Assembly: GCA_031412915.1 (NCBI GenBank)
Contig: JANODX010000123.1
Span: 61,182 to 125,181, forward strand
Source of the DNA: Vicinamibacteria bacterium
Lineage (GTDB): Bacteria; Acidobacteriota; Vicinamibacteria; Fen-336; JAGNNV01
Reading direction: 5' to 3'
DNA length: 64,000 nucleotides
A program made the translations under genes and the position numbers. Positions 17,126 to 40,385 of the stretch are shown piece by piece; the first letter of the stretch is position 1; each line of letters opens with the position of its first letter. The notes under the pieces were generated by a model that worked only from the letters and a program-made list of their open reading frames with translations, did no database searches and had not been told where the DNA came from.

Positions 17126-17185
17126 GGGCGCGCAAGACTACGCGACCTCGCCGTCCCCCAGGTGTCCCGCCCGGGCGCCCTGGCA

Positions 17186-18091: not shown

Positions 18092-18191
18092 GTCCTTACC
18101 TCCAGGGCAGCCCTTCCCAGCAATTCGCCCGATGATCCACGCCCGACCCCCCAAATCATAGGGGATAAGCTCGGAGGGCATCAGGATCGCC

Positions 18192-19247: not shown

Positions 19248-19402
19248 GGGTCATTCAATGATTGACGGACCGCACAACCTGCGGAAGGTCGGGACGAACT
19301 GACGCTCCAGCTGATGGGGCATTCGCCATCAAGAGATGAGGATCCCCTGGCCGGACAGGGGGTGCGCCTCGGCGAGTCGGGTTAGAGTGTCCGCTCCCGT
19401 TG

Positions 19403-20362: not shown

Positions 20363-20383
20363 GAGACGCTGGGCGCCGCATCC

Positions 20384-21295: not shown

Positions 21296-21321
21296 GGTCG
21301 AAGTATTCGACCCGATCCGGC

Positions 21322-23163: not shown

Positions 23164-24503
23164 CAGGAGGGTCGGGTGGAGGTCTGCTTCGCCCGCTCGT
23201 TCCTGAAGACCTTGCCGCCCTTCATCACGAAGACCGGCTTCTCGGTGGCCCTGATGTCGGCGAGCACGTCGCCTGGAAGAGCCACGATGTCGGCCTGCTT
23301 TCCGGCTTCGATGGTTCCCGTCACCTTGCTCACGCCCAGAAGGGCCGCGGCCGAGGGGCCGGTAAGAAGGGCAGCGCCCGGAGTCATGCCGTGCTCGACC
23401 ATGAGCGCGTATTCCTCGGCGTTGCGGCCGTGCGGGCTCACCGCGGTGTCCGTGCCGAAGGCGATCTTCACGCCCATGGCGAGCGCCATCCTGAACGCCG
23501 CTGACCGGCCTTCGAGCGCAGCCTTCGCCTTGGCCGCGATCTCCGGCGGATACTGCCTTGTGGCCTTGCGCCCGCCCGCGTACTCGCCCGCCATCAAGGT
23601 GGGCACGAGATACGTACCCTTCTGTTTCATCATCTGAAGCGCCTCGTCGTCGAGGAAACTGCCGTGCTCGATGGAATCGATGCCCGCGCGGACCGCGACC
23701 TTCGCGCCAAGGGCCCCATGCGCATGGGCGGCCGTCTTCAGCCCAAGGCGGTGAGCCTCGTCCACCAGCGCGTCCAACTCTGCTTCAGTGAGCTGAGGCG
23801 AGTCGACCGCGTCGCCGAGGGAGAGCACACCGCCGGTCGCGCAGACCTTGATGACGTCCGCGCCGTATTTGTGCTGAATGCGCACCGCGTCGCGGAACTG
23901 ATCCGGGCCGCTCGCGATCCCCTCCACGATCCCCGACTCCTTGCCGAAGGCCATGTACGGGAATCCGCCGCTGTCGCAGTGGCCGCCGCGGGCGCCGAGT
24001 GAATGCGCGGCGGTGAGGATACGCGGACCGGGGACCACCTCCGCGTTGATGGAATTGCGCAGACCGATGTCGATCCAATCGCCCGAACCCACGTTCCGCA
24101 CGGTGGTGAACCCGGCTTCGAGCGTCCGCCGCGCGAAGACGGTGGCGCGAATCGCCTGCTCCGGCACGGTCTGCCGGAGGCCGTCAATGGTGTCTCGGTA
24201 CCAGTTGTCGCTCGACTCGGCGGTGAGGTGGACGTGCGCATCGATGAAGCCGGGTGCGAGTGTGGCATCGCCGAGATCGATCAGCCGAGCGCCGGCGGGG
24301 ATGGCCAGGCCCGAGCCCGCGGCCTTGATCTTCCCGCCTTCGACAATCACCACGCCATTCGCGACCGTCGTCTCGCGGGTGCCGTCGAAGAGGCGCGCGG
24401 CCTTGAGCGCAATGATCTCGGCCCTCGGCCCGGGCGGCGAAACCTGGGCCGAGGTCGTCCAGGGAACGAGAAGAGTGATGCCGAGAGCGATGCGCAGTTT
24501 CAT
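23163..24503 (-). CDS. secreted amidohydrolase-family metal-dependent hydrolase
   Basis: Signal peptide MKLRIALGITLLVPWTTSAQ; GFIDAHVHL motif (HxH metal ligands). Stop overlaps the downstream ABC gene start. Confidence 0.8.
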   Translation of the reverse strand: MKLRIALGITLLVPWTTSAQVSPPGPRAEIIALKAARLFDGTRETTVANGVVIVEGGKIKAAGSGLAIPAGARLIDLGDATLAPGFIDAHVHLTAESSDNWYRDTIDGLRQTVPEQAIRATVFARRTLEAGFTTVRNVGSGDWIDIGLRNSINAEVVPGPRILTAAHSLGARGGHCDSGGFPYMAFGKESGIVEGIASGPDQFRDAVRIQHKYGADVIKVCATGGVLSLGDAVDSPQLTEAELDALVDEAHRLGLKTAAHAHGALGAKVAVRAGIDSIEHGSFLDDEALQMMKQKGTYLVPTLMAGEYAGGRKATRQYPPEIAAKAKAALEGRSAAFRMALAMGVKIAFGTDTAVSPHGRNAEEYALMVEHGMTPGAALLTGPSAAALLGVSKVTGTIEAGKQADIVALPGDVLADIRATEKPVFVMKGGKVFRNERAKQTSTRPS

Positions 24504-24567
24504 GTGCGGAACTCTACCCGCAGCCCTGCGGTGATCCGGCAGGCCGGCTCATCAGGGCGGCGGCCGA

Positions 24568-24984
24568 TCAGTGAACCCGGGCTTCCCTGATCAGCATGTG
24601 GCCAACCAGTCTTCCGCTCTCGATCTTCTGGGTGGTGCGCACCCGAAGGTCGCGGCCGAGAAGCGTGATGAGAGATGCGTAGGAGACCTCGGGATGGTCC
24701 GGGTCCTTCCAGACCGAGACGATGTGCGAGCCGTCGAGATCGCGAGCGTGGCCGATAACGTGGGGATGCTGGTGGTGCAGGACACCTTCGGCATCGAAGG
24801 TTCCGAAGAACTCGCTCTCCGCGGCCCGGCCGTCCGGCCAGGCGCGCGTGGTGGTCTGAATCCAGCGGTCGCCTTCGCGCCGAGAGGTCACGGTGGCCTC
24901 GAAGCGGTCGATCTCACGGCCATGGCCGTCGATCACCACATGAGTGCCGCACCAGACGCCGACATGGTCATCGAACAGACCCAT
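24568..24984 (-). CDS. hypothetical protein (small beta-barrel/lipocalin-like DUF)
   Basis: 139 aa from the internal ATG. The ORF-track N-terminal extension is low-complexity and overlaps the GH42 gene end. Confidence 0.5.
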   Translation of the reverse strand: MGLFDDHVGVWCGTHVVIDGHGREIDRFEATVTSRREGDRWIQTTTRAWPDGRAAESEFFGTFDAEGVLHHQHPHVIGHARDLDGSHIVSVWKDPDHPEVSYASLITLLGRDLRVRTTQKIESGRLVGHMLIREARVH

Positions 24985-25063
24985 AAGGAACCTGCCTTGT
25001 CTTTCCTCGTCAATCCTCCTCCTAGAACGCGCCCAGCGCAAGTGGAGCGACGAAAGAAGGAGA

Positions 25064-27190
25064 TCATGGCCTTCTGTCTTTCCAGACCAGGACGCGGGCG
25101 GGCTCCAGGGGGTTAGTCCCCACCAGTATCCGGCTGGCTTGCCCCGTGGCGAGGCTGACCGGGGACGCGGAGTAGTTGACCCCCACGAAGAAGCCGTCCC
25201 GCCATTCCACGTAGACACCTCGGGGGAGATCTTCGATGGGCACCTGCGCCCGCTCGTAAACCTGGCGGACCAGACCGCGCTCCAGTGTGCCGTCCAGGGT
25301 CTCGACCCCGATGTAGGTGACCGTGCCCTTGCCCAGGCGCCGCGTCACCGCGGCGGAGGCGCCGGCGTAGAACTGATCGGTGTAGGTGGCGAGGGACGTG
25401 GCTTCGGAGTTGGGGCGAAGCAGGTCGGCCCAGGCGCGCCAGAGGAAGGGGACGCCCCCCATCGAGACAACGCCATTGGTATCTCCGGGCAGGGTGTCGA
25501 TGCCTTCCAGGCGAGCCCGAAGCAGCGGCTCCAGGCGCGCACCCAGGGGCACTTCCGGAAAGTGTCCATCCGCGTCTTTCTGCGCGGTGCGGGAGGTGAG
25601 GATCAAATGCCCGCCCCCCTGGACGTAGCGGGTCCACTTCTCGATGAGACCCGAGGAGGCCATTTGATAGGCCGGGGCGACCAGGAAGGGGTAGGCGCTG
25701 AAGTCATCCCCCTCGGCAATGAAGTCCAGGGGCGCGCCGGTGGATTTCACCGCGGTGGAATAGAAGTTACGGTGGCGCCAGGTTGACCAGTGCTCGCCCT
25801 GCTTCTGGAGGTCCAGGTCCCACATGCCGTCGTGACTCCATAGAAGGGCGGTGCGGCGAGCGGTGAGGGCCTTGGGAAGCGTAGCCTTGGGGTCGTAGTT
25901 GGCTTTCAGGGATTGAATCTCCGCCTGGGCCTGTACGAATTCCTTTCCGCCCTGGGACAGGGTTAGTCCATCCAGACCGACGATGCCCTCGTGGTACATC
26001 TCGCTGCCGAAACGCGGCTGCCGGTAGCGGTAGGTGCAGACGAAGGAAGAGCCGGCGGCGAAGGCATGCCACAGCCACATGTGGATCGCCCCCGGTTCGG
26101 GCTTGGGGTTAGTGGCGGCCCAATTGACCTGGCCAGGCTGCAACTCCATCACTCCCGTGACTCCGGCGATTGACCGGAAGTAGTCCCCCGCCTCCATCAG
26201 GCGGTAGGGGTTGCCGTAGCGGAAGGTTGGACCGCCAAGGAAATTGGCCCCCGCCACGGGGTACATCGTGAAAGTCGGAAAGTCCAGGGCCGTGGTGCGC
26301 CGGGGGTCGCTCGCCTGCGTGGCGTTCATGTAGTTCGAGGTCACCCACTGTTCGGGACGGATGTGCGGGCGAAGGATCCTGGCCTGCCGATCCAGGAAGG
26401 CGGTCTGCGTATCCGCGGTGAAGCGCTGGAAATCCAGGAGGGCGTGCGGGCTCAGTTTGTCTTCGCCGTTCATGGTCGGGTTGGGCGGATTCACCTGTTC
26501 GAAACGCGCGAAGCGCAGACTCCAGAAACTGCCGCCCCAGGCCTCGTTCAATTTCTCGATGCTTCCATACCGCTTGCCCAGCCAGGCCTGGAAGGCCGTG
26601 CGCGCGGAGGGGCTGTAGTCCGGGGTCGACTCCGGCTCGTTGTCGATCTGGAAGCCCCATACCCGAGGGTCCTTCCCGTAACGGCGGGCCATTTCCGTGA
26701 CAATCCGATCGACATAAAAGAGGAGGCGGGAGTTGGAGAGTGACCCATTCGCACGAGTGCCGTGCTCTCGCCTTCGGCCGTCGGGGCCGGTGAGCAGGAT
26801 CTCCGGATGCTTTTCCGTCATCCAGGCCGGAGGCGCTGCGGAGGGCGTGCACAGGATCACCTTGAGCCCGGACTTGTGGGCCAGGGCGATGGCTTCGTCC
26901 AGCCAGGCGAAGTCGAAACGCCCCTCTTCGGGCTCCAGGTAGGTCCACGCGAATTCAGCGTAGTGCGTGAACGAAAAGCCCAGTCGTCCGATGTTCTGCA
27001 GGTCCCTTGACCATTGGTCGCGCGGCCACTGCTCGGGGTAGTAGTAGACCCCGACCTCCATGAGATTGGCCTTGGGGAAGAACTTCTGAGACGGCTTTTC
27101 TGCGAGTGCGGACGATGATGGGGAGAGCAGGAGCCAGATGGAAAACGCGATGCCGGAAGTTGTGCGATTCATGTCAACCCCATTCATCAT
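25064..27190 (-). CDS. secreted GH42-family beta-galactosidase
   Basis: Signal peptide; YYYPEQWPRDQWSRD...FSFTHYAEFAWTYLEPEEGRFDFAWLD is the GH42 N-terminal TIM-barrel signature. Confidence 0.85.
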   Translation of the reverse strand: MMNGVDMNRTTSGIAFSIWLLLSPSSSALAEKPSQKFFPKANLMEVGVYYYPEQWPRDQWSRDLQNIGRLGFSFTHYAEFAWTYLEPEEGRFDFAWLDEAIALAHKSGLKVILCTPSAAPPAWMTEKHPEILLTGPDGRRREHGTRANGSLSNSRLLFYVDRIVTEMARRYGKDPRVWGFQIDNEPESTPDYSPSARTAFQAWLGKRYGSIEKLNEAWGGSFWSLRFARFEQVNPPNPTMNGEDKLSPHALLDFQRFTADTQTAFLDRQARILRPHIRPEQWVTSNYMNATQASDPRRTTALDFPTFTMYPVAGANFLGGPTFRYGNPYRLMEAGDYFRSIAGVTGVMELQPGQVNWAATNPKPEPGAIHMWLWHAFAAGSSFVCTYRYRQPRFGSEMYHEGIVGLDGLTLSQGGKEFVQAQAEIQSLKANYDPKATLPKALTARRTALLWSHDGMWDLDLQKQGEHWSTWRHRNFYSTAVKSTGAPLDFIAEGDDFSAYPFLVAPAYQMASSGLIEKWTRYVQGGGHLILTSRTAQKDADGHFPEVPLGARLEPLLRARLEGIDTLPGDTNGVVSMGGVPFLWRAWADLLRPNSEATSLATYTDQFYAGASAAVTRRLGKGTVTYIGVETLDGTLERGLVRQVYERAQVPIEDLPRGVYVEWRDGFFVGVNYSASPVSLATGQASRILVGTNPLEPARVLVWKDRRP

Positions 27191-27418
27191 TGATTAAAGA
27201 TTAATGATTAATGATCAATGACCAATAATCTAACTCGCGCAGGCAAACAGTCAGGGTTACGGCGATCGATCCATCGGAGCGTCGCGAGAAGGGTGAGACA
27301 AGGCCGCCGCATCGCGCCAACCACAGGCCAACCCTATCGTAAAGACAGCCGACCTGGTGCAATCGCCTATCATCCTTCACACAGTTGATGCTGATCTTCG
27401 GCCTTCGAGCCCCCTCCC
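27190..27418. promoter_or_regulatory. divergent promoter region (GH42 <-> galKT) containing an AT-rich palindromic operator-like element
   Basis: TCATCATTGATTAAAGATTAATGATTAATGATCAATGACCAATAATC (27186-27232) is a very AT-rich inverted/tandem TTAATGAT motif array in a 65 % GC genome. Confidence 0.5.
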
Positions 27419-28603
27419 TTGCCAGAAGGAGCTAGTGACCGCGGCCAGTCCCGTCGTATCCGCCGGGTTTTCGAGAACCACTACGGGGAACCCGCTCTCA
27501 TGGTCAGAGGTCCGGGACGGGTCAATCTCATCGGGGAACACACGGACTTCAACCTGGGCTTCGTGTTGCCGGGGGCCGTGGACAAGGGTATCTGGCTGGC
27601 CATACGTCCTCGGAAGGACGAGAGTTGTCGCTTCCACGCGGCGGACACAGGAGAATGCCTCGAAACCAGTACTCCCGGGCTGACCCGTTCCGAACTCGGC
27701 TGGCCCAACTACCTGCTGGGCGTCTACTCTGAGATTTCGCAAGACGGTCATTCCCCCCCGGGTGTGGACTGCGTATTCGGGGGAAACCTTCCCATCGGCA
27801 GCGGGATGTCCTCCTCCGCCGCGCTGGAATGCGCCTTCGCCTTCGGGCTGAACGAGCTCTTCTCGATCGGATACGACCGCCTTTCCCTGGCCCGCCTGGG
27901 TCAGCGCGTCGAGAACCGTTTCGTGGGCGTGAACTGCGGCATCATGGATCAATTCGCATCCCTTCTTGGCCGAGACCGTCACTTGATCCGCCTGGATTGC
28001 CGCGATCTCAGCTACGAGTACATTCCCTTCGCAGAGCCCGGCCTGGTCGTGGTTCTGTGCGATACCCGGATCCGTCGATCCCTCGCCACGGGCGGCGAAT
28101 ACAATGCGCGACGTGCCCAATGCGAAGCCGGTGCGGCTCTCCTGGGATCGCGCCACCGAGAGGTTCATAGCCTGCGGGACGTGACCGAGGACATGTTGGA
28201 AGCCGCGCGCCCAAGGATGGATCCGATCGTGTTCACCCGATGCTCGTACGTCATCCGGGAAAACCGGAGGGTCCTCGATGCGTGCGATGACCTCGCGAGG
28301 CAGGACTACGCGAGTTTCGGTCGACGCATGAACGAGAGCCACCGGGGTTTGCAGAACGATTACCAGGTCTCCTGCCCAGAGCTCGACATCCTGGCCGAAA
28401 GCGCCCAGGCCATCCCCGGCGTCCTGGGCAGCCGCATGATGGGCGCAGGCTTCGGGGGGTGCACCATCAACCTGGTCTGGGAGGCTGAACTGGAGTCCTT
28501 CCGGGCCCGGATGGCCGAGATCTACCATCACAAGCTCCTAAGCGAACCATGGCTCCATGTCTGCCGCTTGACCGGCGGAACCGAAATTGTTCAGGGACCG
28601 TGA
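27419..28603 (+). CDS. galK: galactokinase
   Basis: [25 protein letters not shown] and [19 protein letters not shown] (GHMP motif); collinear with E. coli GalK. TTG start. Confidence 0.92.
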
Positions 28604-28614
28604 CCAGACTCGAC

Positions 28615-29667
28615 ATGGAGACCCCCTTGTTCGATCGTCCGCATCGCCGCTTGAACCTGTTGACCGGGGAGTACGTTTTGGTGAGTCCGGAACGGACACA
28701 GCGCCCCTGGCAAGGCAGGATCGAACGCACCGCCGGGGAGGCCCGGCCCGCCTACGATCCGGGCTGCTACCTCTGCGCGGGCAACCTGCGGGCGGGGGGC
28801 CGCCGCAATCCGGACTACACGGGAACCTTCGTCTTCGACAACGACTTCGCCGCCCTCATGCCGAAGGAGAGCGGGAAAGCGCCCGCGGCCAGGGCCGGCC
28901 TGATGGTGGCCGAGCCCGAAAGCGGAGTCTGCCGGGTCGTGTGCTTCTCGCCCCGCCACGACCTGAGCGTGCCGGAGATGAGCGTGCCGGAACTCGTGGC
29001 CGTGCTGGACGCCTGGACCGAGGAAACCCGCAGCCTGGGCGCTCGCGCCGACATCGAGTGCGTGCAGATCTTCGAGAACAAGGGCGAGTTGATGGGTTGC
29101 TCCAATCCTCATCCCCACTCTCAGATCTGGGCCACGGAGCATCTGCCCAGCGAATCCGCCAAGGAGCTGGCTCGCCAGGTCAGCCACTTCGCGCGGTGCG
29201 GGCGGCCTCTGCTTTCCGATGTGCTGGCGGAGGAACTGGATCACGGACAGCGGATGGTCGTGGAGAACGAGAGCTTCGTCGCTTTCGTGCCCTTCTGGGC
29301 GGCCTGGCCCTTCGAGACCATCGTTGTCCCTCGCCGGCCCCTCCGCACCCTCCTGGACCTGGATGATCGGGATCGTCTTCGGTTGGCGGATCTGCTGAAG
29401 CGCCTCACCACTCGCTACGACAACCTTTTCGAGACCAGCTTCCCCTACAGCATGGGCTTCCACCAGGCACCCTTCGACGGGAAGGCCCACCCCGAGTGGA
29501 TCCTGCACCTGCACGTCTACCCGCCCCTCCTGCGCAGCGCCACGGTGCGGAAATTCATGGTCGGCTTCGAGATGCTGGGGATGCCCGGGCGCGACCTCAC
29601 GCCCGAACACGCCGCGGAGCGCCTGAGGGCGCTGTCGGACACCCACTACACCGAGGCGGGAAGCTGA
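28615..29667 (+). CDS. galT: galactose-1-phosphate uridylyltransferase
   Basis: [12 protein letters not shown] (HPH active site) and a zinc-binding N-terminal region. ATG at 28615 lies 11 nt after the galK stop. Confidence 0.92.
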
Positions 29668-29734
29668 TTCCAGGAGCCGCCGTTCGTGTGATGCCTGCGC
29701 CCCTCTCCGAGGGCAGGTTGGCTGGCCCCGCGGC

Positions 29735-30868
29735 CTATCGACTCGCCGGACGGAGGCGAGTGACCTGAGTCGAGACGGTTTGGTTCCCCCCGAAACCGCC
29801 GACGGTCCACCACGCGCCGCCCATCGCGACCAGGCCGCGATGATCCATCGATGGAGCGGGTAGCCGCGGACCCTCGACCCACACGTTGCGCTCGATGTCG
29901 TAGATCCAACTCGCGGCTTCGGGCTCCGAGGGCTGGCCGTCGTAGCCGACACCGTTGTAGTTGTAAGGGTTCGACGTCCCCCCCACGAACATGACGCCGA
30001 CCACGCCGCCCGTCTGCACGGCCCCGGCCGCGGCCCGGTATCGGGACCCACCGGGGTGAGAGGCGATCCGTCGCCAGGCCACGGCGGTCGGATCCAGGGG
30101 GTCGATGTCTCCTCGATAGCACTCGGGATTGATCGCGTACTTGGGAGACTTCGGAACCTGCACCTTGGCCCCGCCGCAGTAGACGATCGCGTCGCGGGCG
30201 ATTCCGCCCGCATGTCCAAACACCGGGGTTCCCGGAACCGGAGTGGCGCGCCTCCACCGGTCGAGGGCGGGATCGTAGACCTGAACCGCATCGATGTTGT
30301 TCGCGACCGACCAGCCGCTGATCAGAAAGATCAGGCGATCGCGCCACACCGCCGATACGGTGTCGTCCACCGGCACGGGTATGTCCGTGCCCCGCGAATA
30401 GCTGCGGTTCCGGACATCGTAGATGTCCACCGCCGGACTGGTCGTCTCCTTGCCGTCCGCGGCCACGGAATACCCGCCGAACACGTACACGCGCTCGCCG
30501 AAGGCCTGAGCGGTGGCGGCGAGCCGTCCCACCGGGCCCGGCACGTCCGGCAGCGCCTCCCACCGGCCCAGGGCGAGGTCGAGCGTCCAGGCATGGGTGG
30601 TGATGGCGCGGAAGTCCTTGCCCGCGGAGAGGCCCAGAAAGCTGAAGATCCGATCTCGCCCGTCCACCGTGGATCCGGCCACCGCGTTGTTCGCGAGCGC
30701 CTCGGGCAACGGTGGTCCGGCCTCGACCTTGAACGCCGGAGCCGCGGCCGCAGGCGAGGCCCGGTCCGCCCCTGAATCCGCCTGCCCGGTTGTGGGTCCG
30801 GGATCGCGGCACGCCGTCATCGCCGAAATCAGCAGGAGAAATACTTGTTTGAATCCGCGTGCGCTCAT
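29735..30868 (-). CDS. Kelch-repeat beta-propeller lipoprotein (NanM / galactose-oxidase-central-domain-like)
   Basis: Lipobox LLISAMTAC; repeated Kelch-like blades (VYVFGGY..., LIFLISGW..., IVYCGG..., VMFVGG..., LVAMGG...). Confidence 0.7.
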   Translation of the reverse strand: MSARGFKQVFLLLISAMTACRDPGPTTGQADSGADRASPAAAAPAFKVEAGPPLPEALANNAVAGSTVDGRDRIFSFLGLSAGKDFRAITTHAWTLDLALGRWEALPDVPGPVGRLAATAQAFGERVYVFGGYSVAADGKETTSPAVDIYDVRNRSYSRGTDIPVPVDDTVSAVWRDRLIFLISGWSVANNIDAVQVYDPALDRWRRATPVPGTPVFGHAGGIARDAIVYCGGAKVQVPKSPKYAINPECYRGDIDPLDPTAVAWRRIASHPGGSRYRAAAGAVQTGGVVGVMFVGGTSNPYNYNGVGYDGQPSEPEAASWIYDIERNVWVEGPRLPAPSMDHRGLVAMGGAWWTVGGFGGNQTVSTQVTRLRPASR

Positions 30869-30916
30869 CGGGCCGACGGTATCATGTCCGTATTCGAGCG
30901 CGACCCCGACGGGTCG

Positions 30917-31382
30917 CATCAGGAGGATGCCTATGCGTCAATGGTTACTACGAGGACTGCTTATCATGCTCGCCATCCCGGCGGCCGCCCAGACCTTGGA
31001 TTCGAAAGACGTCGTCGACGTCAAGGCCACGCTTGCAGCCATGTGGGACGCGGTGGAGAAGGGTGACGTCGACCGCTACGCGACATACGTGCATCCGGCT
31101 TTCACGTCGTTCGGCGAGAACGACACCTACATCACGGAAGGCAAGGAGGCGGAGGTCCGCAACTATCGCGACTATCTGCGCCGGGCCACCGGTGTGCACA
31201 CGGACATGCACCAGCCCGTGGTGACGGTGCGTGGCGAGGTCGCGTGGATCACCTACTACTGGACCGACTCGGGGCTGAGCGACGGCAAGCGCTTCAGTTC
31301 ACGCGGCAAGTCCACGCGCATCTTCGTCCGCGAGGGTGGTCGCTGGCTTTGCACCCACGGCCACTACACCGCGGTTCCCTGA
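30917..31382 (+). CDS. secreted NTF2/SnoaL-like (DUF4440-type) protein
   Basis: AGGAGG immediately upstream (a second ATG at 30923 has better spacing); signal peptide LLRGLLIMLAIPAAAQ; NTF2-like core. Confidence 0.7.
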
Positions 31383-31460
31383 GACGCTTGTTGCCACCCC
31401 GAGGGTCCAGGGCCGTGAGCCGACCATAGGACACGAGCGCCCTGCGCGCAGGAACTCGCG

Positions 31461-32219
31461 CTAGGTCGCGACGAGGAACCGGACGATCGAATCCACATCG
31501 GCGTGGGAGGTCGTGTCTTTTCCGAGGGGCGTGATGGAGACGTAGCCGGCGCGGATCGCGGCCATGTCGTCGCCATCGGCCGCGTCCCACTTGTCGAAGG
31601 GCTCGGCGATCCAATAGAACGAGCGCCCGCGGGAATCCTTCGTGACCGAAACACCCGAAGCATGACCGCGCATACCCTGCCGCGTCACTTTCACGCCCCG
31701 GATCTCGGAGGCGGATCCGTCCGGGACATTGAGATTCAGGAGCACTCCGGGCGTCGGTGGAGCGGTGAGCAACATCTCGCACACGCGCCTGGAATGCCTG
31801 GCCGCTTCGCTGAAGTCGATCGGGCGGCCTCGGGTGACGAGCGAACACGCCGCGGACGGAAGCCCCCAAAAGGCGGCTTCGCGCGCCCCCCCGACCGTGC
31901 CCGAATAGTAGACATCGTCACCCAGATTAGCGCCGCGGTTGATGCCGGAAAGAACCACATCCGGCTTCTGGGGCAAAAGGCTGGCGAGCGCCAGGACGAC
32001 GCAATCGGCCGGCGTCCCATCGACCGCATAGGTGGTCTCGTCGATTCTCTCCACGGTGAGAGGGCCTTTGATCGTGATGCCCTGTCCGCATGCGCTCCGC
32101 TCACGGTCGGGGGCTATGACCACGACGTCCCCGAGATCGGCCACCGCGTCCCGAAGGGCCAGAAGCCCAGGGGCCCGGTAGCCATCGTCGTTGGTGATAA
32201 GGATGAGCGGTCGAGACAT
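31461..32219 (-). CDS. surE: 5'/3'-nucleotidase SurE
   Basis: MSRPLILITNDDGYRAPGL...GINRGANLGDDVYYSGTV is canonical SurE. Confidence 0.92.
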   Translation of the reverse strand: MSRPLILITNDDGYRAPGLLALRDAVADLGDVVVIAPDRERSACGQGITIKGPLTVERIDETTYAVDGTPADCVVLALASLLPQKPDVVLSGINRGANLGDDVYYSGTVGGAREAAFWGLPSAACSLVTRGRPIDFSEAARHSRRVCEMLLTAPPTPGVLLNLNVPDGSASEIRGVKVTRQGMRGHASGVSVTKDSRGRSFYWIAEPFDKWDAADGDDMAAIRAGYVSITPLGKDTTSHADVDSIVRFLVAT

Positions 32220-32319
32220 CCCTTCAGCCTATCGGGTTTCGGGGACGCTACAAAGAGCGAGACGCGAGGGCTGAAGAGGGGGCCGGGACGCGAAGGGCGA
32301 GGGCTGCGACCTCGCTCCC

Positions 32320-32529
32320 TCAGGCCGCGTAGTAGCGCACCGCCGTGAAGTGGCAGAAGGTGCCTGCGAGCACGAACAGGTGCCAGACGAAATGGCCGAA
32401 GCGAAGGCCCTTCGCGGCGTAGAACGCCACACCCGCCGTGTTGGCGTGCGGCACGCCGCCGCAGATCACGGCGATGGCAACCGAGCTGGCCAAAGCCGGC
32501 CCCCAGTGCCTCACCACCTTTTTTGCCAA
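32320..32529 (-). pseudogene. C-terminal fragment of a hemolysin-III/PAQR-family channel protein gene
   Basis: AFYAAKGLRFGHFVWHLFVLAGTFCHFTAVRYYAA matches the conserved C-terminus of HlyIII family proteins (...HEIWHLFVLAGSACHF.AV..Y). The upstream about 170 codons are absent. Confidence 0.55.
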
Positions 32530-32689
32530 CCTGCGGGCCGCGCACCTGGCGCCCGTGCTAGAAACGGAGCCGGCCGTCCCGGTTTACGACACCGTGAGCC
32601 CGGCGGTGTGGGAATCGCTGCGCCTGTGCGGCGTGGACACCGCACGTGTGAAGGATTGGGGCAACTTGTTCAACGAGGAGATCGCATGA
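32438..32689 (+). other. orphan ORF/gene fragment at left edge of the high-GC block (antisense to the hlyIII fragment)
   Basis: 83-aa ORF with very high GC3 (block-like codon usage); no recognisable family. Could be the C-terminus of a gene lost at the junction. Confidence 0.3.
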
Positions 32690-32825
32690 AACATCCGATG
32701 TCAACCTGTTCCTTGCGGGCCGCTGCGCCGAGCCGCCCCGAGCCAAACCCGACCCAGGGCCACGCGGGCGGGCCTTCGCGGCCCTCGGAGGGTCGATCCC
32801 CGTACTCGGCGATCAGGGGGCGGTC

Positions 32826-34289
32826 ATGAGCGTGGCCTTTGACCTCATCGTGCGCAACGCCCAGACAGCCACGGCGGCCGACCTGTTCCGCTGCGACATC
32901 GGCATTCGCGGCGGGCGCATCACTGCACTGAGCGAGCAGCTGCCGGCCGGCGCGGGCACGCGCGAGATCGACGCCGCGGGGCGTTATGTCACCCCGGGCG
33001 GTGTCGACTCCCACTGCCACATCGACCAGCCCATGCTGCCGCCGATCCGCATGGCCGACAACTTCGAAACCGGCACGCGTTCGGCCGCCTGCGGGGGCAC
33101 CACCACCGTGATCCCGTTCGCGGCGCAGCAGCGGGGGCAGGGCGTGCAGGCGGCCGTCGACGACTACCACCGCCGCGCCGAGGGCAACGCAAGTGTTGAC
33201 TATGCCTTCCACCTGATCGTGAGCGACCCCACGCCCGAGGTCCTCAACATCGAGTTGCCGGCGCTGATCGAACGCGGGTACACGTCGTTCAAGCTCTACA
33301 TGACCTATGAAGACCTGAAGCTCGACGACCGGCAGATTCTTGAGCTGCTGGAGGTGGCACGCCGCCATGGGGCGATGGTGATGATCCACGCCGAGAACAC
33401 CGACGCGATCACCTACCTCAGCGAGCGCCTGCTGGCCGTGGGCAAGAGTGCGCCGCGCTACCACGGGCTGTCGCGGCCCTCGCCGGTGGAGCGCGAGGCC
33501 ACGCACCGCGCGATCACGCTGGCCGAGCTGCTCGACGTGCCCATCCTGCTGGTGCATGTGTCGGGCGCCGAGGCGGTGGAGCAGATCCGCTGGGCACGGG
33601 GCAAGGGGCTCAACGTGCAGGCCGAGACCTGCCCGCAGTACCTCTTTCTCACCCAGGACGACCTGGCCTTGCCCGGCTTCCATGGAGCGCGCGGCGTGTG
33701 CAGCCCGCCGCCACGCGACAAGGCCAACCAGCAAGTGATCTGGGACGGCCTGGTCGACGGTCTGTTCAGTGTCTTCTCTTCGGACCATGCGCCTTTCAAC
33801 TACGACGACGACTCGGGTAAACGCCTGGGCGGCAAGGAGCCCGCGTTCCCGCACATCCCGAACGGTGTGCCGGGCATCGAGACGCGCATGGCCTTGCTGT
33901 TCTCGGAGGGGGTGCTCGCGGGGCGCATGCCCATCCAGCAGTTCGTCGCCCTCACGGCCACCAATGCGGCGCGCCTGTATGGCCTCTACCCCCGGAAGGG
34001 CACGATTGCCATCGGCAGCGACGCCGATCTGGTGATCTGGAACAGCGGCACGCCTTACACCATCCGCAATGAAGCGCTGCACCACGCCGTCGACCACACG
34101 CCTTACGAGGGCCGAGAGCTGCGGGCCTGGCCTGCGATGACGCTGCTGCGTGGCGAGGTGGTCTGGGACGGCGAGCGTTTTCTCGGCCGCGCCGGTGGGG
34201 GCCAGTTCCTGCGCTGTGAGCGGCCCGAGGCGGCACGCCCGCGACCGCGCGCGCAGACCTGGCGGCGTTTTATGGAACTGGAAGACTGA
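32826..34289 (+). CDS. D-hydantoinase / dihydropyrimidinase-family cyclic amidohydrolase
   Basis: GGVDSHCHID metal-binding motif, ...FKLYMTY..., VHVSG.EAVE... and SDHAPF are all typical of the dihydropyrimidinase/hydantoinase family. Confidence 0.85.
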   Translation: MSVAFDLIVRNAQTATAADLFRCDIGIRGGRITALSEQLPAGAGTREIDAAGRYVTPGGVDSHCHIDQPMLPPIRMADNFETGTRSAACGGTTTVIPFAAQQRGQGVQAAVDDYHRRAEGNASVDYAFHLIVSDPTPEVLNIELPALIERGYTSFKLYMTYEDLKLDDRQILELLEVARRHGAMVMIHAENTDAITYLSERLLAVGKSAPRYHGLSRPSPVEREATHRAITLAELLDVPILLVHVSGAEAVEQIRWARGKGLNVQAETCPQYLFLTQDDLALPGFHGARGVCSPPPRDKANQQVIWDGLVDGLFSVFSSDHAPFNYDDDSGKRLGGKEPAFPHIPNGVPGIETRMALLFSEGVLAGRMPIQQFVALTATNAARLYGLYPRKGTIAIGSDADLVIWNSGTPYTIRNEALHHAVDHTPYEGRELRAWPAMTLLRGEVVWDGERFLGRAGGGQFLRCERPEAARPRPRAQTWRRFMELED

Positions 34290-34291
34290 GC

Positions 34292-34714
34292 GTGACGAAC
34301 CGACTCTTGATAACCGTCGCGGGCCACCGCTTCATTGCGGAGGCGCACCCTGATGCGCCCCAGACCTTTGCGGCCTTCGCCCGGCTGCTGCCCTACCGGC
34401 AGAAGCTGATCCACGTGCGCTGGAGCGGCGAAGCGGTGTGGGTGCCGCTCGGCGACTTTCATCTCGGCGTGGGCTACGAGAACCACACCAGCCACCCGTC
34501 GGTGGGCGACGTGCTTTTCTACCCTGGCGGCTTCAGTGAAACCGAGCTGCTCATCGCCTATGGCGCTTGCAGCTTTTCCAGCAAAATGGGGCCACTGGCG
34601 GGCAACCACTTTCTGCGCATCGTCAAAGGACAGGAGCAACTGGCGGCGCTGGGGCGCAAGGTGCTGTGGGAAGGCGCACAAGACGGGCTGTTCGAGTGGG
34701 AGCCACACGTGTAG
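34292..34714 (+). CDS. hypothetical protein (DUF commonly found beside hydantoinases)
   Basis: 140 aa. Start overlaps the hydantoinase stop region; same codon-usage regime as its neighbours. Confidence 0.6.
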   Translation: MTNRLLITVAGHRFIAEAHPDAPQTFAAFARLLPYRQKLIHVRWSGEAVWVPLGDFHLGVGYENHTSHPSVGDVLFYPGGFSETELLIAYGACSFSSKMGPLAGNHFLRIVKGQEQLAALGRKVLWEGAQDGLFEWEPHV

Positions 34715-34824
34715 GCGAGGTTTGCGGCACGCCAACGGTGGCCCCGCCCACGAGAAACCCCTTGCGCGCATGACCGTGGCTACTTCTGCGATCCGGCGCC
34801 GTGATTGATAATGAGCGGGTGCGC

Positions 34825-35763
34825 ATGCGAGTAACCCTGATTCTGACGGCGGTGTTCGTCCCGTGCCTGCTGGGCGGAACCGCCGCCCGAGCCGCGCAGG
34901 ACGCGCCGTGGTGGAAGGCGCTGCCTCGTCCGATCTACCGCGAGCTGGAGCGGGTAAAGGTGGACTCGCACTGGTTCGAGGTGTACCGAGTGGCTCCGGG
35001 CACGACGGCGCTCTATGAACCAGGACACTGGCAGGAGGCGATTTCCTATCTCATCGAAGGCGGCGAGCGCGCCGTCCTGTTCGACACCGGTCTCGGCATC
35101 GCCAACATCAAGGCCGTCGTCGATCAGTTGACGACCCTCCCCGTGACGGTTGTGAACTCGCACGAGCACTTCGACCACATTGGCGGCGATCGCCTGTTCA
35201 CCGAGGTCGCCGTCGCGGACAATCCGGCGGCCCTCGCGCGATTGGCGCGCGGCACGGGCAGCCTGGCGGGCGAGATCACAGCCGAGACCGTCTGGATGCC
35301 GCTGCCGGCGGGCTTCGACCGGGCGCGTTACGAGACGCCGCCGATTCGGCCGACGCGGCGGCTCATCGACGGCGAGCGTCTCGACCTTGGCGGGCGCACG
35401 CTCGAGGTCGTCCTCACGCCGGGGCATACGCCGGGCAGTCTGTGCCTGCTCGACCGCGGGCGCCGCCTGCTGTTCACGGGCGATACGCTGTATCCCGCGA
35501 CATTGTACGCGCACGCCCCCGAGTCGAACCTCCGAGACTACGTGCGCTCCGCGGCGCGCCTCGGCGCACTTGGCGACCTGGTCGACATGCTGTGCCCGGG
35601 CCACAACGAGGCGAAGGTATCGGCCACGCTGCTGACCCGCTTCGCGAGGGCGTTTGCCGCCATCGGTCGCGGGGAGGTGTCCGCCGCGCGTGAACGCCCC
35701 GGCGTCGTTCGCTACGACTCGGAGGGGATCGTCTTGCTCGCGCGGGACGAGCAGAAGAAGTAG
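34825..35763 (+). CDS. secreted MBL-fold metallo-hydrolase
   Basis: Signal peptide MRVTLILTAVFVPCLLGGTAARAAQ; SHEHFDHIGG (HxHxDH) and downstream His/Asp ligands. Confidence 0.8.
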   Translation: MRVTLILTAVFVPCLLGGTAARAAQDAPWWKALPRPIYRELERVKVDSHWFEVYRVAPGTTALYEPGHWQEAISYLIEGGERAVLFDTGLGIANIKAVVDQLTTLPVTVVNSHEHFDHIGGDRLFTEVAVADNPAALARLARGTGSLAGEITAETVWMPLPAGFDRARYETPPIRPTRRLIDGERLDLGGRTLEVVLTPGHTPGSLCLLDRGRRLLFTGDTLYPATLYAHAPESNLRDYVRSAARLGALGDLVDMLCPGHNEAKVSATLLTRFARAFAAIGRGEVSAARERPGVVRYDSEGIVLLARDEQKK

Positions 35764-35824
35764 CCCGGCGGCCCGTCGACCGCGTCCGGCGAACGCCAGG
35801 GCCGCTCGACGGTATCCTTCGTTC

Positions 35825-37162
35825 ATGAATCGACGCCAGTTCCTGAACCACGGCGTCCTCGCGGTGTCCGGCCTGGCCGTGACGGCGCCACCGGCGGGCG
35901 CGCAACCCTCCGGTGCCGCGGCCCTCGACGCCGCGCGCGCGCTGGCCCTGGCCCAGACCCGCCGCGCGGAGCTCGTGGACCTGCTCTCGCGGCTCATCGC
36001 CGTTTCGAGCCCGCTCGGCGAATCGGCCGAGCAGGCGCAGCGCCTGGTCGCCGACTACTTGAACACGCGCGGCTATCGCTCGGAGTTGACCACCGACGAT
36101 CCCACGGCGTACACCTCGCATCCCGATTACATGGCGCCCGCCACGCCGTATCCCGCCCCGGCCGTCAACCTCGTGGCCCGGGCGGCATCACGTCCGTCGA
36201 AAGTGGGGCTGTTCGCTCACATCGACACCGAAGGCGCGGGCGCCGGCTGGACCTCCCCGCCGCTCACGGCCACGGTGCGCGACGGCCGTCTGTACGGACT
36301 AGGCGCCGCTGACGACAAGGGCGGCGTGGCCGCCATGGCCGTGGCCGCCGCGATCCTGCAGGCCAACGGGCGGCCGAGCCCGCTCGTGATGAGCCTGCAC
36401 GGCAAGGGCGGTGGGAGTCGTGGCAGCCTGCCCACGTTCGCCCGCCTGCGCGAGTTCTCGCAGGTGCTCTACGTGCATCCGGCCGAGACGGGGCGCGGAT
36501 TCGCCGACATCAAGCACATCGTGCGCGGCGTGCTCGACATGCGCCTCACGGTAACCGGCTGGCGCGGCGACGTGCGCGAGCTCGGGAGCCCGGACAGCGC
36601 GTCGTTCTCCGAGGGTGGGGACGCCCTGCAGGCGGCGCTGGCGATGGTCGACGCGTGGCGGACGGGACCGCTCAAGGGCGCCGAGGTGAACGTAGGCGAG
36701 ATCGCGGCCGGCGACCGCGTGGGCTCGGTGCCGGCGCAGGCCCGCGCCCGTGTACGCGTGCTCTTCGACGACGCACGCGCCTTCGGCGAGGTGCTTTTGG
36801 ACGCGCGTCGCGAGTGCGACCGGGTGGCGGCCGCGCGCAGCCGCGGCGACCACAAGATCACGGTTACGCTCGAGCGCGCCGGCCTGGGCGCCAACCACGC
36901 CTCCGTGCCGTGGGATTCGCCGGCGTGCCGCGTGCTGCGCGCCTCGATTGAAGACGTCACCGGCCGCGCGCCGGCGTCGTATCCGACCCACTTCGCCGGC
37001 GACATCCGGTATCCGATTCGCCTGGCCGGGGTGCCGGCCTTCGGCATGGGCTCGCTCGCCGGCGGCTTCTACGGCGCCGACGAGTGGGTGGATATCGACG
37101 ACCTGGTGCGGCTCGTCGCCATCGTGATGGTGTGCGCCGACCGTTGGGCGGCGTTGCCCTAG
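35825..37162 (+). CDS. TAT-secreted M20-family peptidase / amidohydrolase (ArgE/DapE/N-carbamoyl-amino-acid hydrolase-like)
   Basis: Twin-arginine motif MNRRQFLNHGVLAVSGLAV; M20 metal-binding region GLGAADDKGGVAAM. Confidence 0.8.
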   Translation: MNRRQFLNHGVLAVSGLAVTAPPAGAQPSGAAALDAARALALAQTRRAELVDLLSRLIAVSSPLGESAEQAQRLVADYLNTRGYRSELTTDDPTAYTSHPDYMAPATPYPAPAVNLVARAASRPSKVGLFAHIDTEGAGAGWTSPPLTATVRDGRLYGLGAADDKGGVAAMAVAAAILQANGRPSPLVMSLHGKGGGSRGSLPTFARLREFSQVLYVHPAETGRGFADIKHIVRGVLDMRLTVTGWRGDVRELGSPDSASFSEGGDALQAALAMVDAWRTGPLKGAEVNVGEIAAGDRVGSVPAQARARVRVLFDDARAFGEVLLDARRECDRVAAARSRGDHKITVTLERAGLGANHASVPWDSPACRVLRASIEDVTGRAPASYPTHFAGDIRYPIRLAGVPAFGMGSLAGGFYGADEWVDIDDLVRLVAIVMVCADRWAALP

Positions 37163-37404
37163 GATCTGGGACTCCGCCGATCAGGATCATGCCCTCGCTC
37201 GTTGCCTCACGCGCCACCGCAGAATGGGCCTTGAGGTCGGGCTTGTTCGAGTAGGCGCAGCCCTTCTGGCGCGGCGCTCAATGAGAGCACGCTCTCCGCC
37301 GTGCGCTTCGACCTCAAACACCTGGCCGCGCTCGTTTCGCTTACGCTCCGAGAGATCATGGCCTGGTCAACCGGCGCAGGGTGAGCCCGGCAAGCGCCAC
37401 CACT

Positions 37405-37593
37405 TCACTCGGTGCGGAGCGCGTTGAGTGGGTTGAGTGGGTTGACGCGGGTCGCCCGGCGGGCAGGAATGTAACAGGCGAGCAACGCCACCAGACTCAA
37501 CACAAGCGGAGCGGCGATGAAGGTCAAGGGGACTGGTTCTGTAGAGCATGCCCGCAACCACCTGGCCGAGGCCCGTGGAGGCCGTACATCCAA
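37405..37593 (-). pseudogene. C-terminal fragment of an FtsX/MacB-like ABC transporter permease gene
   Basis: Ends ...[33 protein letters not shown]. This is the hallmark C-terminus (YPA.RAARL.PVEALR.E) of FtsX-family permeases, here with an internal NPL duplication caused by a GAGTGGGTT tandem repeat. No upstream permease body. Confidence 0.5.
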
Positions 37594-37834
37594 GGCGCGG
37601 TTCGTCTATGCGGGCGCTGGAAAAGCACCGGACGCGTCGCTACCAGCCCGCGAACGCGCTCACCGCCGACGTTCGCCGGCATCTGAACAGCGAGCGCCCT
37701 AAGTGACCGACTCTCATCAACGAGCAGGGTGGGAGCCTCGGCTCGCGCTGCAACCCCCGTGCAACCCCAGAAGGAATGGCGTGGGGGGCGAGAACCGCCG
37801 AAACTCACGAAACCAGCGTCGATACTGGGGAAAG

Positions 37835-37912
37835 ATGGTCGGGATGGGAGGATTTGAACCTCCGACCCCCTGCACCCCAAGCAGGTGCGCTATCCAGGCT
37901 GCGCTACATCCC
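37835..37912 (-). tRNA. tRNA-Pro (anticodon GGG)
   Basis: CGGGATG-TA-GCGC-AGCCTGGATA-GCGC-A-CCTGC-TTGGGGT-GCAGG-GGGTC-GGAGG-TTCAAAT-CCTCC-CATCCCG-A-CCA. Perfect stems, G37, CCA encoded. Confidence 0.9.
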
Positions 37913-37982
37913 GATGTACGTCGACGTCAAGGGGGCGGAGTCTACCAGCGTTCCGGGGATCGGTACGACGCCCTTGGCGGCC

Positions 37983-38885: not shown

Positions 38886-40385
38886 TTATGAATGGCGGAC
38901 AGATCGCTTGTCAATCCGAGTTTTTCGAACCTCTAAATGACTTGAACTGTCCTGAGGTATCTCTTTTCCGCTGTTTGGTTTACCATCGGTTCTGGGCCTG
39001 GGAATCGCCTTCCTCATCTTGAACGACTGAGGTCCGGAGCGGGAGCGCCGCACCCTGAGCCAGATCCGAATCGGCGACCCCTCGAACCCGAATTCCTTTC
39101 GCAGGCAGTTGATCAGAAAGCGTTCGGACGAGAAGTGCAGCTCGCCCTCCCGATTGACCGAGAGTGTGAACGTGGGCGGGTCGACGCGGATTTGCGCGGC
39201 GTAGAGAAGGTTGACGCCCTCGGCGCCCTTCTTGAACCTTATGGGATTCCGAGCCACCGCGTCCTGAAGGCAGCGGTTGAGGGGTCCGGTGGGAACCCGG
39301 CGCGACCACTCCACCCGGGCGTGGTCGATGGCCGTGAAAAGGTCTTTCCGCCCCATCCCGGTCTTGGCGGAGACGAGCACGACCGGCGCGTACTCGAGGA
39401 ACTTGACGCGATAGGAGAACTCTTCGCGCATCTGGGCCGACGTCTTGTTCAGCGTCTTCGCGAGGTCCCACTTGTTCACCGCCACCACCACCGCCCGGCC
39501 CGACTCCTGAATCAGGCCGGCAATCGTCGCATCCATTTCGCGCATGCCGTCCTCGGCCGAAACCAGGAGGACGCAGACTTCAGCCCGATCGATGGCTCGC
39601 TTGGCCTGGACCACGGCCACATGATCCGCCCCGTCCTCCAGCAACCGGACTTTACGGATGCCGGCGGTATCGACGAAAAGGTACGGCTTGCCCTGCCAGG
39701 CGACCAGGGAGTCGACGGCATCCCGGGTGGTCCCGGAAACCGGGGAGACGATCGAGCGCTCCTCGCCCACGAGGCGGTTGAGCATCGACGATTTCCCGAC
39801 GTTGGTGCGGCCAACCAGGGCCACTCGAACGGGATGGACGTTCTCGTCCTTTTCCTGTATCTCGGGCGCCTTCACGACCTTGCAGACGAGGTCGAGAAGA
39901 TCGCCGATCCCCTCGTTGTGTTCGGCTGAGATCGGGAATGGTTCGCCAAAACCAAGGCGAGCGAACTCGTTGGTCTCGCGCCGGCTCGCTTCCGCCTTGT
40001 TGATGACCAGTAGAACGGGCTTGCCTGAAGAGCGGACCTTCCGAGCGAGAGCCTGGTCGTCCGGGAGGAGGCCGGACTGCGCATCGACAAGCAGGACGAC
40101 CAGGGCGGCCTGACCGATGGCCACATCGGCCTGGGCTTTGCTCAGCTTGAGGAAGAGTTCGTCGGCCCCCGGGGATAGCCCGCCCGTATCGACGATCCTG
40201 AACTCCTTTCTCTGCCATTCGACCCGGCCGTAGGCCCGGTCCCGGGTGGACCCCGGCTTGGAATCGACAATGGCCTGCCTTCGCCCGGTAAGCCGATTGA
40301 AAAGAGTGGACTTACCCACATTGGGCCGGCCTACCACCGCAACCAGCGGTAAAGCGTCGATTTCGGTTGTGGATTCAGGCGTCAC
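38886..40385 (-). CDS. der: ribosome-associated GTPase Der (EngA), double GTPase
   Basis: Two G domains (VAVVGRPNVGKSTLFN and VALVGRTNVGKSSMLN), a KH-like C-terminal domain, plus a basic tail. Confidence 0.95.
   Translation of the reverse strand: MTPESTTEIDALPLVAVVGRPNVGKSTLFNRLTGRRQAIVDSKPGSTRDRAYGRVEWQRKEFRIVDTGGLSPGADELFLKLSKAQADVAIGQAALVVLLVDAQSGLLPDDQALARKVRSSGKPVLLVINKAEASRRETNEFARLGFGEPFPISAEHNEGIGDLLDLVCKVVKAPEIQEKDENVHPVRVALVGRTNVGKSSMLNRLVGEERSIVSPVSGTTRDAVDSLVAWQGKPYLFVDTAGIRKVRLLEDGADHVAVVQAKRAIDRAEVCVLLVSAEDGMREMDATIAGLIQESGRAVVVAVNKWDLAKTLNKTSAQMREEFSYRVKFLEYAPVVLVSAKTGMGRKDLFTAIDHARVEWSRRVPTGPLNRCLQDAVARNPIRFKKGAEGVNLLYAAQIRVDPPTFTLSVNREGELHFSSERFLINCLRKEFGFEGSPIRIWLRVRRSRSGPQSFKMRKAIPRPRTDGKPNSGKEIPQDSSSHLEVRKTRIDKRSVRHS

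Follow-up and report, generated by a model that had tools for sequence, protein, structure and literature searches.

Genomic islands are recognized by their absence in relatives, deviant composition, insertion at tRNA genes' 3' ends, direct repeats of 16-20 bp and mobility genes that can be functional or cryptic, and those of <10 kb are called genomic islets (Juhas et al. 2009, FEMS Microbiol Rev, PMC2704930). In this work, we analysed a 64,000-nucleotide stretch of a Vicinamibacteria bacterium (GenBank assembly GCA_031412915.1, contig JANODX010000123.1, positions 61,182 to 125,181; hereafter the window), in which a block at ~32262-37830 lies between surE and a tRNA-Pro(GGG) gene. Like the described islands and islets (PMC2704930), this block of 5.6 kb is absent in relatives, deviates in its nucleotide statistics, adjoins a tRNA gene and has a cargo of metabolic or accessory genes; unlike them, it contains no integrase, transposase or insertion sequence, has no flanking direct repeats and is a patchwork of two donors. 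We regard it as a genomic islet, a new instance of a well-known phenomenon and ordinary horizontal gene transfer in kind. Our reading, to which we give a probability of about 0.8, is that the block would be a genuine lineage-specific islet from two donors, formed by illegitimate recombination in a Vicinamibacteria chromosome.

For comparison, 111 loci were fetched and labelled with L-numbers; L019 came from a genome scan, and L037, L038, L072 and L032 from a metagenome scan. L023 is Piscinibacter gummiphilus (CP136336.1) and L024-L026 are three metagenome contigs. Within the block, module 1 (32455-34714) consists of a truncated Asp/Glu-racemase gene, a dihydropyrimidinase/D-hydantoinase gene and a DUF3830 gene, while module 2 carries the genes for a metallo-beta-lactamase (MBL)-fold hydrolase and an M20 metallopeptidase. 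The features of the block and its two anchors are as follows.

31461-32219, minus strand: surE, the conserved left anchor (Pfam SurE 5.7e-60; 82-92 % amino acid identity to Vicinamibacteria relatives)
32191-32261, plus strand: left breakpoint zone with the first ~15 codons of a small open reading frame (ORF), from alignment to relatives
32323-32442, minus strand: C-terminal remnant of a TrhA/hemolysin-III gene, ~40 codons (NF011669 TrhA positions 163-199 of 199, E 3.6e-11)
32455-32689, plus strand: 3' remnant (~78 codons) of an Asp/Glu-racemase gene (EutA/Amdase-like), left end of module 1 (TIGR02990 EutA positions 167-237 of 239, E 1.3e-4)
32690-32824, plus strand: 135-bp insertion from racemase stop to hydantoinase start, with a CATGA duplication at both sides (comparison with L023, L024 and L026)
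32826-34289, plus strand: dihydropyrimidinase/D-hydantoinase, intact (NF009941 765 bits, cut-off 647; TIGR02033 519.5 bits, cut-off 393)
34292-34714, plus strand: DUF3830 protein, right end of module 1 (Pfam PF12903 7.8e-31; 82-89 % amino acid identity to L023/L026)
34781-37377, plus strand: module 2 as a unit (99.0 % nucleotide identity to L031 over 34781-37216)
34825-35763, plus strand: MBL-fold hydrolase, 312 amino acids, true start 34825 (Pfam Lactamase_B 4.6e-24)
35825-37162, plus strand: M20 metallopeptidase, 445 amino acids, true start 35825 (Pfam M20; homologues of 442-445 amino acids)
37408-37530, minus strand: C-terminal remnant of an ADOP-family (FtsX-type) permease, 41 codons (TIGR03434 positions 766-803 of 803, E 2e-10)
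37531-37835, no strand: spacer without assignment (no family match in any frame; no similarity to relatives)
37836-37913, minus strand: tRNA-Pro(GGG), the conserved right anchor (ARAGORN; 3' end at 37836)

The window can be placed in a Vicinamibacteria chromosome, since its Der protein (38886-40385, minus strand) is 86-94 % identical to that of 19 loci from Vicinamibacteria and Acidobacteriota metagenome-assembled genomes (MAGs). Relatives with enough flanking sequence (L009, L011, L014 and L018) share the order der-HU-merR-tRNA-Pro(GGG)-surE-tRNA-Pro(CGG)-acylphosphatase-sulfatase-tRNA-Arg-TPR-S49 peptidase, to which DUF4440 and transketolase can be added in L009 and L018, where the sequence is long enough. 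The window follows this order with two additional segments, segment A (~32262-37830, the block) and segment B (11711-31460), and both outer flanks of the block match the conserved Vicinamibacteria synteny. Nine relatives lack the block and show a compact merR/tRNA-Pro(GGG)/surE arrangement instead (L009, L011, L014, L018, L019, L037, L038, L072 and L032); the SurE of L072 is 92 % identical to that of the window. With these empty sites and the TrhA and ADOP remnants at the edges, a preliminary description made from the sequence alone, of a foreign block directly 3' of tRNA-Pro(GGG) and flanked by gene stumps, is borne out.

In the relatives, the spacer from tRNA-Pro(GGG) to surE mostly measures ~450-570 bp (0.1-1.1 kb overall) and contains, divergently from surE, a small ORF of ~95-106 codons, for which a Pfam search gave no match. 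Homology to the relatives ends on the right at 37831, 5 nucleotides beyond the 3' end of tRNA-Pro(GGG), and comes back on the left at 32241-32261, ~20-40 nucleotides upstream of the surE start (32219), so that only the first ~15 codons of the small ORF survive in the window. Because this ORF has been reduced to ~15 codons, the event would be a replacement and the state of the window the derived one; judged from these alignments, ~32262-37830 appears to be a lineage-specific replacement. Directly after tRNA-Pro(GGG), most relatives also have a G/C-rich hairpin element of ~60-80 nucleotides (GCTGGGGGGCG...CGCCCCCCAGACCCCC...) in one to three tandem copies, which were located at 12557-12780 in L009, 1777-1990 in L021 and 4702-5030 in L013, and behind the tRNA in L014, L018 and L011. 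Allowing up to 3 mismatches, a 21-mer of this element was not recovered in the window.

The closest described system for module 1 is the proteobacterial racemase-hydA-DUF3830 operon, known from Piscinibacter gummiphilus (CP136336.1) and, at ~70 %, from the megaplasmids of Azospirillum/Paraburkholderia. Over 32825-34700, the window is 84-88 % identical at the nucleotide level to L023-L026, where the operon reads GntR-Asp/Glu racemase-dihydropyrimidinase-DUF3830 in the same gene order and orientation, and donor homology on the right side of the module runs to 34700. This identity exceeds that of surE and merR to other Vicinamibacteria (77-83 %). The hydantoinase aligns with its family profile over residues 4-478 of 487, is full length and scores above the curated cut-offs, and by these matches is a bona fide member of the dihydropyrimidinase/D-hydantoinase family. 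It shares 92 % amino acid identity with Methylibium petroleiphilum over all 487 residues and 88 % with Piscinibacter gummiphilus, belongs to the same 90 % cluster as Rhizobacter proteins, and its named best matches are all Burkholderiales, with Piscinibacter, Rhizobacter and Methylibium among them. DUF3830, for which a literature search returned no papers, accompanies the hydantoinase in the donor loci (82-89 % amino acid identity), and both proteins are without signal peptide. From this homology, the hydantoinase and DUF3830 genes appear to be of Burkholderiales origin.

Unlike the proteobacterial operon, the window lacks the GntR regulator and about two-thirds of the racemase gene, its host is acidobacterial, and none of the genes for an amidase, an amidohydrolase and an ABC transporter that adjoin the operon in the donor locus came along. 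The transferred fragment begins inside the racemase gene, because 32455-32689 represents the last ~78 racemase codons (77-80 % nucleotide and 69-72 % amino acid identity to L023-L026); what had been listed as an orphan ORF at 32438-32689 is therefore this gene remnant. While the racemase stop and hydA start overlap (ATGA) in L024 and L026, in the window this still recognisable junction is split by the 135-bp insert, whose sequence has no second copy in the window or any fetched locus. Piscinibacter gummiphilus has an independent insert of ~48 bp at the same point (L023 9937-10011), flanked by an 11-bp duplication (ATGAGCACCGC).

Module 2 has its closest counterparts in MBL-M20 pairs of Acidobacteriota contigs, which keep the same spacing at nucleotide identities of 99 % in L031, with a further 52-nucleotide match at 37326-37377 (96 %), and 92 % in L027 (91.8 % over 34885-37163). 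The flanks of these pairs differ, with a MazE-PIN toxin-antitoxin pair directly upstream in L027 (79-782) and other fragments in L031, and none of the three contexts (window, L027 and L031) has a mobility gene alongside. L031 has Vicinamibacteria flanks, with a tetranucleotide correlation of r=0.98 to the host sequence of the window and a flanking gene whose named homologues point to Vicinamibacteria, and the genes around its module 2 copy are unrelated to the neighbours in the window. Orthologues of the M20 gene (~80 % nucleotide identity) occur in L028-L030 in different, stable contexts, and the neighbour genes in L029 cluster with proteins labelled Acidobacteriota. Composition and nearest homologues point to a high-GC Acidobacteriota lineage as the putative source of module 2, which appears to be currently shared, nearly identical, between Vicinamibacteria genomes. 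The MazE-PIN pair hints that the L027 copy may lie in accessory DNA too. Neither terminal inverted repeats nor a target-site duplication were seen by eye at the two ends of module 2. Downstream of the M20 gene, a 109-bp stretch (37217-37325) is missing in L031; it is bounded by an imperfect direct repeat of ~25 nucleotides (GCCCTCGCTCGTTGCCTCACGCGCC / GCCGCGCTCGTTTCGCTTACGCTCC), which suggests a repeat-mediated insertion or deletion.

The two-donor picture agrees with the tetranucleotide composition of each module: module 1 correlates with the Piscinibacter flanks at r=0.957 versus 0.854 with the host, and module 2 with the L027/L028 lineage at r=0.95 versus 0.874 with the host. In a scan with 2.5-kb sliding windows over the 64 kb, the tetranucleotide distance from the window mean exceeded z=2 only at 32.5-38.5 kb and peaked at 4.9 (35.0-37.5 kb), so that the non-uniform composition proposed in the preliminary description was confirmed by k-mers, as was the bias toward CTG and CGC. 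CTG/Leu (0.62-0.63) and CGC/Arg (0.57-0.66) were high in three of the four genes, namely those of the hydantoinase, DUF3830 and M20. Other elements of the proposed bias did not stand, as GCC/Ala was not raised in the block genes and their third-position GC (GC3) of 0.82-0.88 fell within the whole-window range of 0.75-0.90, for which reason we rejected GC3 as a discriminator. Plain GC was 0.67-0.68 at 32-35 kb, 0.71-0.73 at 35-37 kb and ~0.65 elsewhere, leaving 35-37 kb as the only clearly GC-rich stretch. Likewise, a Betaproteobacteria-like character held for the hydantoinase and DUF3830, with their Burkholderiales matches, but not for the MBL and M20 genes, which come from Acidobacteriota; a best-hit taxonomy of the proteins divides in the same way, the hydantoinase matching outside the host lineage and the MBL/M20 pair having its nearest homologues in Acidobacteriota.

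The junctions of the block are occupied by gene remnants. On the left, the TrhA stump (Pfam HlyIII positions 184-224 of 224, E 0.013) had no counterpart in the spacers of the relatives or in any of the 111 fetched loci. It had been described as 57 codons long, but comprises only ~37-40 (32323-32442), the rest of that ORF being the antisense of the racemase remnant. On the right, ADOP stands for acidobacterial duplicated orphan permease, an acidobacterial family. The claimed C-terminal ~40 codons of an FtsX-like permease with a duplicated GAGTGGGTT were found as 41 codons, in which GAGTGGGTT forms a 9-bp tandem duplication at 37426-37443 that results in NPLNPL. A full-length duplicated FtsX permease has ~800 amino acids, of which the stump covers only the last 38 profile positions (766-803), and by this measure it is a remnant rather than a functional gene. 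Its identity to the ADOP gene beside merR in L017, a full but frameshifted copy, is 62 %. Since the family is acidobacterial and L017 holds this frameshifted ADOP gene between merR and an inverted tRNA-Pro(GGG), the stump is plausibly a former resident of the site. We also considered the FtsX fragment 3' of M20 in L031 as the same remnant and rejected it, as it is of a different FtsX type with no homology beyond 37377. For the remaining debris, a Pfam search at E<=10 with the six small ORFs of 37187-37835 returned no families, Rfam found only tRNA at 30-40 kb, and a consensus scan for promoters and terminators gave nothing above shuffles.

As to mechanism, the islet probably formed by stepwise illegitimate, non-site-specific recombination in a rearrangement-prone tRNA-Pro(GGG)-surE spacer. 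The native spacer of ~0.45-0.55 kb, with the hairpin-repeat element past the tRNA and the small conserved ORF, would have been replaced by at least two independently acquired pieces, module 1 from Burkholderiales and module 2 from high-GC Acidobacteriota, and the TrhA and ADOP stumps would be leftovers of earlier occupants truncated by later events. We infer this course because attachment sites (att), integrase and phage sequences are missing, the breakpoints fall at constrained edges, the junctions cut genes and the locus is unstable in relatives. The block starts 1-5 nucleotides past the 3' end of tRNA-Pro(GGG), which is neither split nor duplicated, and each outer breakpoint falls where selective constraint ends, at the tRNA on the right and near the surE start on the left. 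The internal junctions each cut a gene. The tRNA adjacency may then reflect only the limit of constrained sequence. In accordance with the preliminary description, no integrase and no repeat of the tRNA 3' end were found: Pfam searches on all ORFs (E<=10 for debris ORFs) revealed no integrase, transposase or conjugation genes, and a 30-mer of the tRNA-Pro(GGG) 3' end (<=3 mismatches) recovered only the paralogous tRNA-Pro(CGG) gene. Direct and inverted repeats within 31.4-38.6 kb were short matches at chance level, with no attL/attR of 16-20 bp. Phage records gave no match to the block, and plasmid records only the ~70 % matches of the proteobacterial racemase-hydA-DUF3830 operon, with no vector among them.

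Several points weigh against our reading. Illegitimate recombination is deduced here from missing signatures rather than from positive evidence, and an integrase could have acted in trans or have been deleted since. The TrhA stump and the sequence at 37531-37835 were traced to no source. The best match of module 1 is only 88 % at the nucleotide level and the actual donors are unsampled, so that the timing and route of transfer are only conjectured. Independent assembly support stops in the M20 gene, with the right junction (37378-37835) outside it, and signal peptides were assigned to the MBL and M20 proteins solely by visual inspection.

The alternative of a classical tRNA-targeting island, in which a tyrosine integrase placed a single element in the 3' end of tRNA-Pro(GGG), with later decay of int and of the distal att repeat, is unlikely, though it keeps a small share of credibility. 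It would explain why the block adjoins the tRNA 3' end, its atypical composition and absence in relatives, the occupation of this site by other cargo in L021 and L017, and the many MAG contigs of relatives that break right after tRNA-Pro(GGG). However, searches of all frames gave no integrase domain, the tRNA 3' end has no repeat, the two modules have different donors and their own internal breakpoints, and the tRNA-proximal part is a host-type ADOP stump instead of an int gene. The other boundary is likewise the edge of constrained sequence upstream of surE, and both modules look unameliorated, which leaves little time for a complete loss of int and att. The preliminary description had taken the tRNA junction for a classical integration point and the block for an old, degraded island; homology merely stops at the edges of constrained sequence with no att signature, and the retained tetranucleotide signature of the donors and the 99 % copy of module 2 in another genome speak against great age.

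Another possibility, which we hold to be rather doubtful, is that the surE locus between its two tRNA-Pro genes is a dedicated integrase-independent hotspot of capture and shuffling in Vicinamibacteria, with the 2.6-kb MBL-M20 segment as a cargo cassette, mobile across genomes and loci but devoid of any known mobility gene or repeat. It is suggested by the 99 % MBL-M20 copy at two unrelated loci, the other cargo in L017 and L021 and the inverted tRNA genes. The tRNA-Pro(GGG) gene is inverted in L017, L019 and L032, and the acylphosphatase-tRNA-Pro(CGG) unit in L011, L034, L035 and L037; with either tRNA-Pro inverted in several relatives, the locus appears inversion-prone. Lying on either side of surE, the two tRNA-Pro genes share ~80 % identity. 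As for the cargo, L021 has a class-V aminotransferase gene (2082-3536, 484 amino acids) after tRNA-Pro(GGG) at the same site, and L017 a 182-amino-acid ORF and an ADOP permease split in two ORFs (4130-7188) between merR and the inverted tRNA. The MAG contigs L006, L007, L008, L010, L012 and L015 end ~40-210 bp past tRNA-Pro(GGG), which is consistent with strain-level variability or with assembly-breaking repeats.

The cargo might be thought to form a single pathway. Profile matches confirm the four intact genes that had been reported for the block, i.e., those of a hydantoinase, a DUF3830 protein, an MBL-fold hydrolase and an M20 metallopeptidase. The MBL protein has a hydrophobic N-terminus ending in ARA followed by AQ, a Sec-type signal peptide, and the M20 protein begins with MNRRQFL..., a twin-arginine (TAT) motif (RRQFL); judged by eye, these leaders support the earlier view that the MBL protein is secreted and the M20 protein exported by the TAT route. 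No NCBIfam model matched the MBL protein above cut-off, and an assignment to subclass B3 metallo-beta-lactamases was rejected (bla_subclass_B3, 47 bits against a cut-off of 240), so that by its profile it is a generic MBL-fold hydrolase, for which a claim of resistance is unjustified. The best NCBIfam match of the M20 protein is an ArgE/DapE deacylase, at 92 bits against a cut-off of 376.

A selected cyclic-amide pathway, in which the hydantoinase opens the ring, the M20 protein acts as N-carbamoyl-amino-acid amidohydrolase and the MBL protein is accessory, is conceivable from four intact, co-oriented genes. It is also favoured by the membership of hydantoin-pathway L-carbamoylases in the M20 family. 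We nevertheless consider such a pathway improbable, as the donors differ, with hydA-DUF3830 found without MBL/M20 in Burkholderiales and MBL-M20 without hydA in L027 and L031; the hydantoinase is leaderless, whereas the M20 protein has a TAT motif and the MBL protein a Sec-like leader; and the best NCBIfam match of the M20 protein, to ArgE/DapE deacylases, is far below cut-off. Compared with hyu-type clusters, where an intact racemase and a carbamoylase accompany the hydantoinase, the window retains 78 codons of the racemase and a TAT-exported M20 protein of separate origin. The single periplasmic cyclic-amide module of the preliminary description is not supported, as signal peptides are absent from the hydantoinase and DUF3830 proteins, which came in apart from the exported MBL/M20 pair. 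Under the two-donor reading, ring opening of 5-substituted hydantoins or dihydropyrimidines by the hydantoinase would take place in the cytoplasm, while the MBL and M20 proteins would act outside it, so the products of the two modules probably work in different compartments. The cell would have received a ring-opening amidohydrolase for the cytoplasm, but not the racemase, regulator or downstream enzymes that go with it, and, separately, an exported pair of metallohydrolases; the modules would be adjacent by accident of insertion and not as a pathway.

Since the contig is metagenome-derived and module 1 is 84-88 % identical to Burkholderiales DNA, a mis-joining of Burkholderiales and other reads into a Vicinamibacteria contig, by assembly or binning, has to be weighed, all the more as the right junction lies outside independent assembly support. 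Two independent single-run Logan assemblies (SRR20217196 and SRR20217205) provide this support: their contigs agree with the window at 100 % identity from DUF4440/surE as far as the 5' end of M20, and stop inside that gene; this range takes in the left junction, the insert between racemase and hydA and the boundary of the two modules. The same path from surE through the TrhA remnant, racemase remnant, hydA, DUF3830 and MBL to the M20 5' end in two assemblies, the internal position of the block between outer flanks in conserved Vicinamibacteria order, the junctions with unique truncated genes rather than shared repeats, and the residence of module 2 in another Vicinamibacteria contig make a chimera very unlikely, contrary to the suspicion raised at the outset. 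An ancestral presence of the block in Vicinamibacteria, with deletion in the sampled relatives, is scarcely credible either: the locus is prone to deletion and inversion and the closest relatives (Der 91-94 %) have contigs ending at the tRNA, but nine relatives share the compact state and the small ORF lost in the window, the composition is donor-like, 92 % amino acid identity to Burkholderiales is incompatible with vertical descent across phyla, and the truncated donor operon gives the direction of transfer.

What makes the islet noteworthy is a cross-phylum donor at 92 % protein identity, the mosaic of two donors and the recurrence of module 2 at 99 % identity in an unrelated locus. It offers a well-bounded transfer from Burkholderiales into Acidobacteriota, in a poorly studied soil lineage, for which the donor operon, breakpoints and empty site can be identified. 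The case illustrates that compositional outliers on MAG contigs can be real and that tRNA adjacency alone does not mean integrase-mediated insertion. For annotation, the four genes should not be read as one pathway nor the MBL protein as a beta-lactamase, and the TrhA, racemase and ADOP stumps are best treated as pseudogene fragments. The islet opens no new biological question.

Beyond the islet, ARAGORN detected three tRNA genes in the window, of which two lie on the other side of surE.

7967-8043, minus strand: tRNA-Arg(CCT) (ARAGORN)
11633-11710, plus strand: tRNA-Pro(CGG) (ARAGORN)

Segment B (11711-31460), a window-specific stretch of 19.7 kb with 14 genes, runs from the 3' end of tRNA-Pro(CGG) to the surE stop. 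Seven of the genes code for a Ser/Thr kinase-TPR protein, a Rieske oxygenase, an EamA protein, a CDF transporter, a GHMP kinase, an alpha/beta hydrolase and a phosphodiesterase, and the other seven for an ABC exporter, an amidohydrolase, a GH42 beta-galactosidase, GalK, GalT, a Kelch protein and a DUF4440 protein. In L009, L014, L018, L011, L036 and L037, surE is separated from the tRNA-Pro(CGG)/acylphosphatase unit by <=~400 bp. Because segment B resembles the host in composition (r=0.992), it is probably a rearrangement or insertion within the lineage. The earlier view that core genes flank the block therefore applies to the conserved surE and merR genes but not further to the left, where 11711-31460 is a second window-specific segment, and surE stands as an isolated conserved gene between two variable regions. 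In L035, a CDF transporter gene 90 % identical to window positions 17186-18304 lies directly 3' of tRNA-Pro(CGG).

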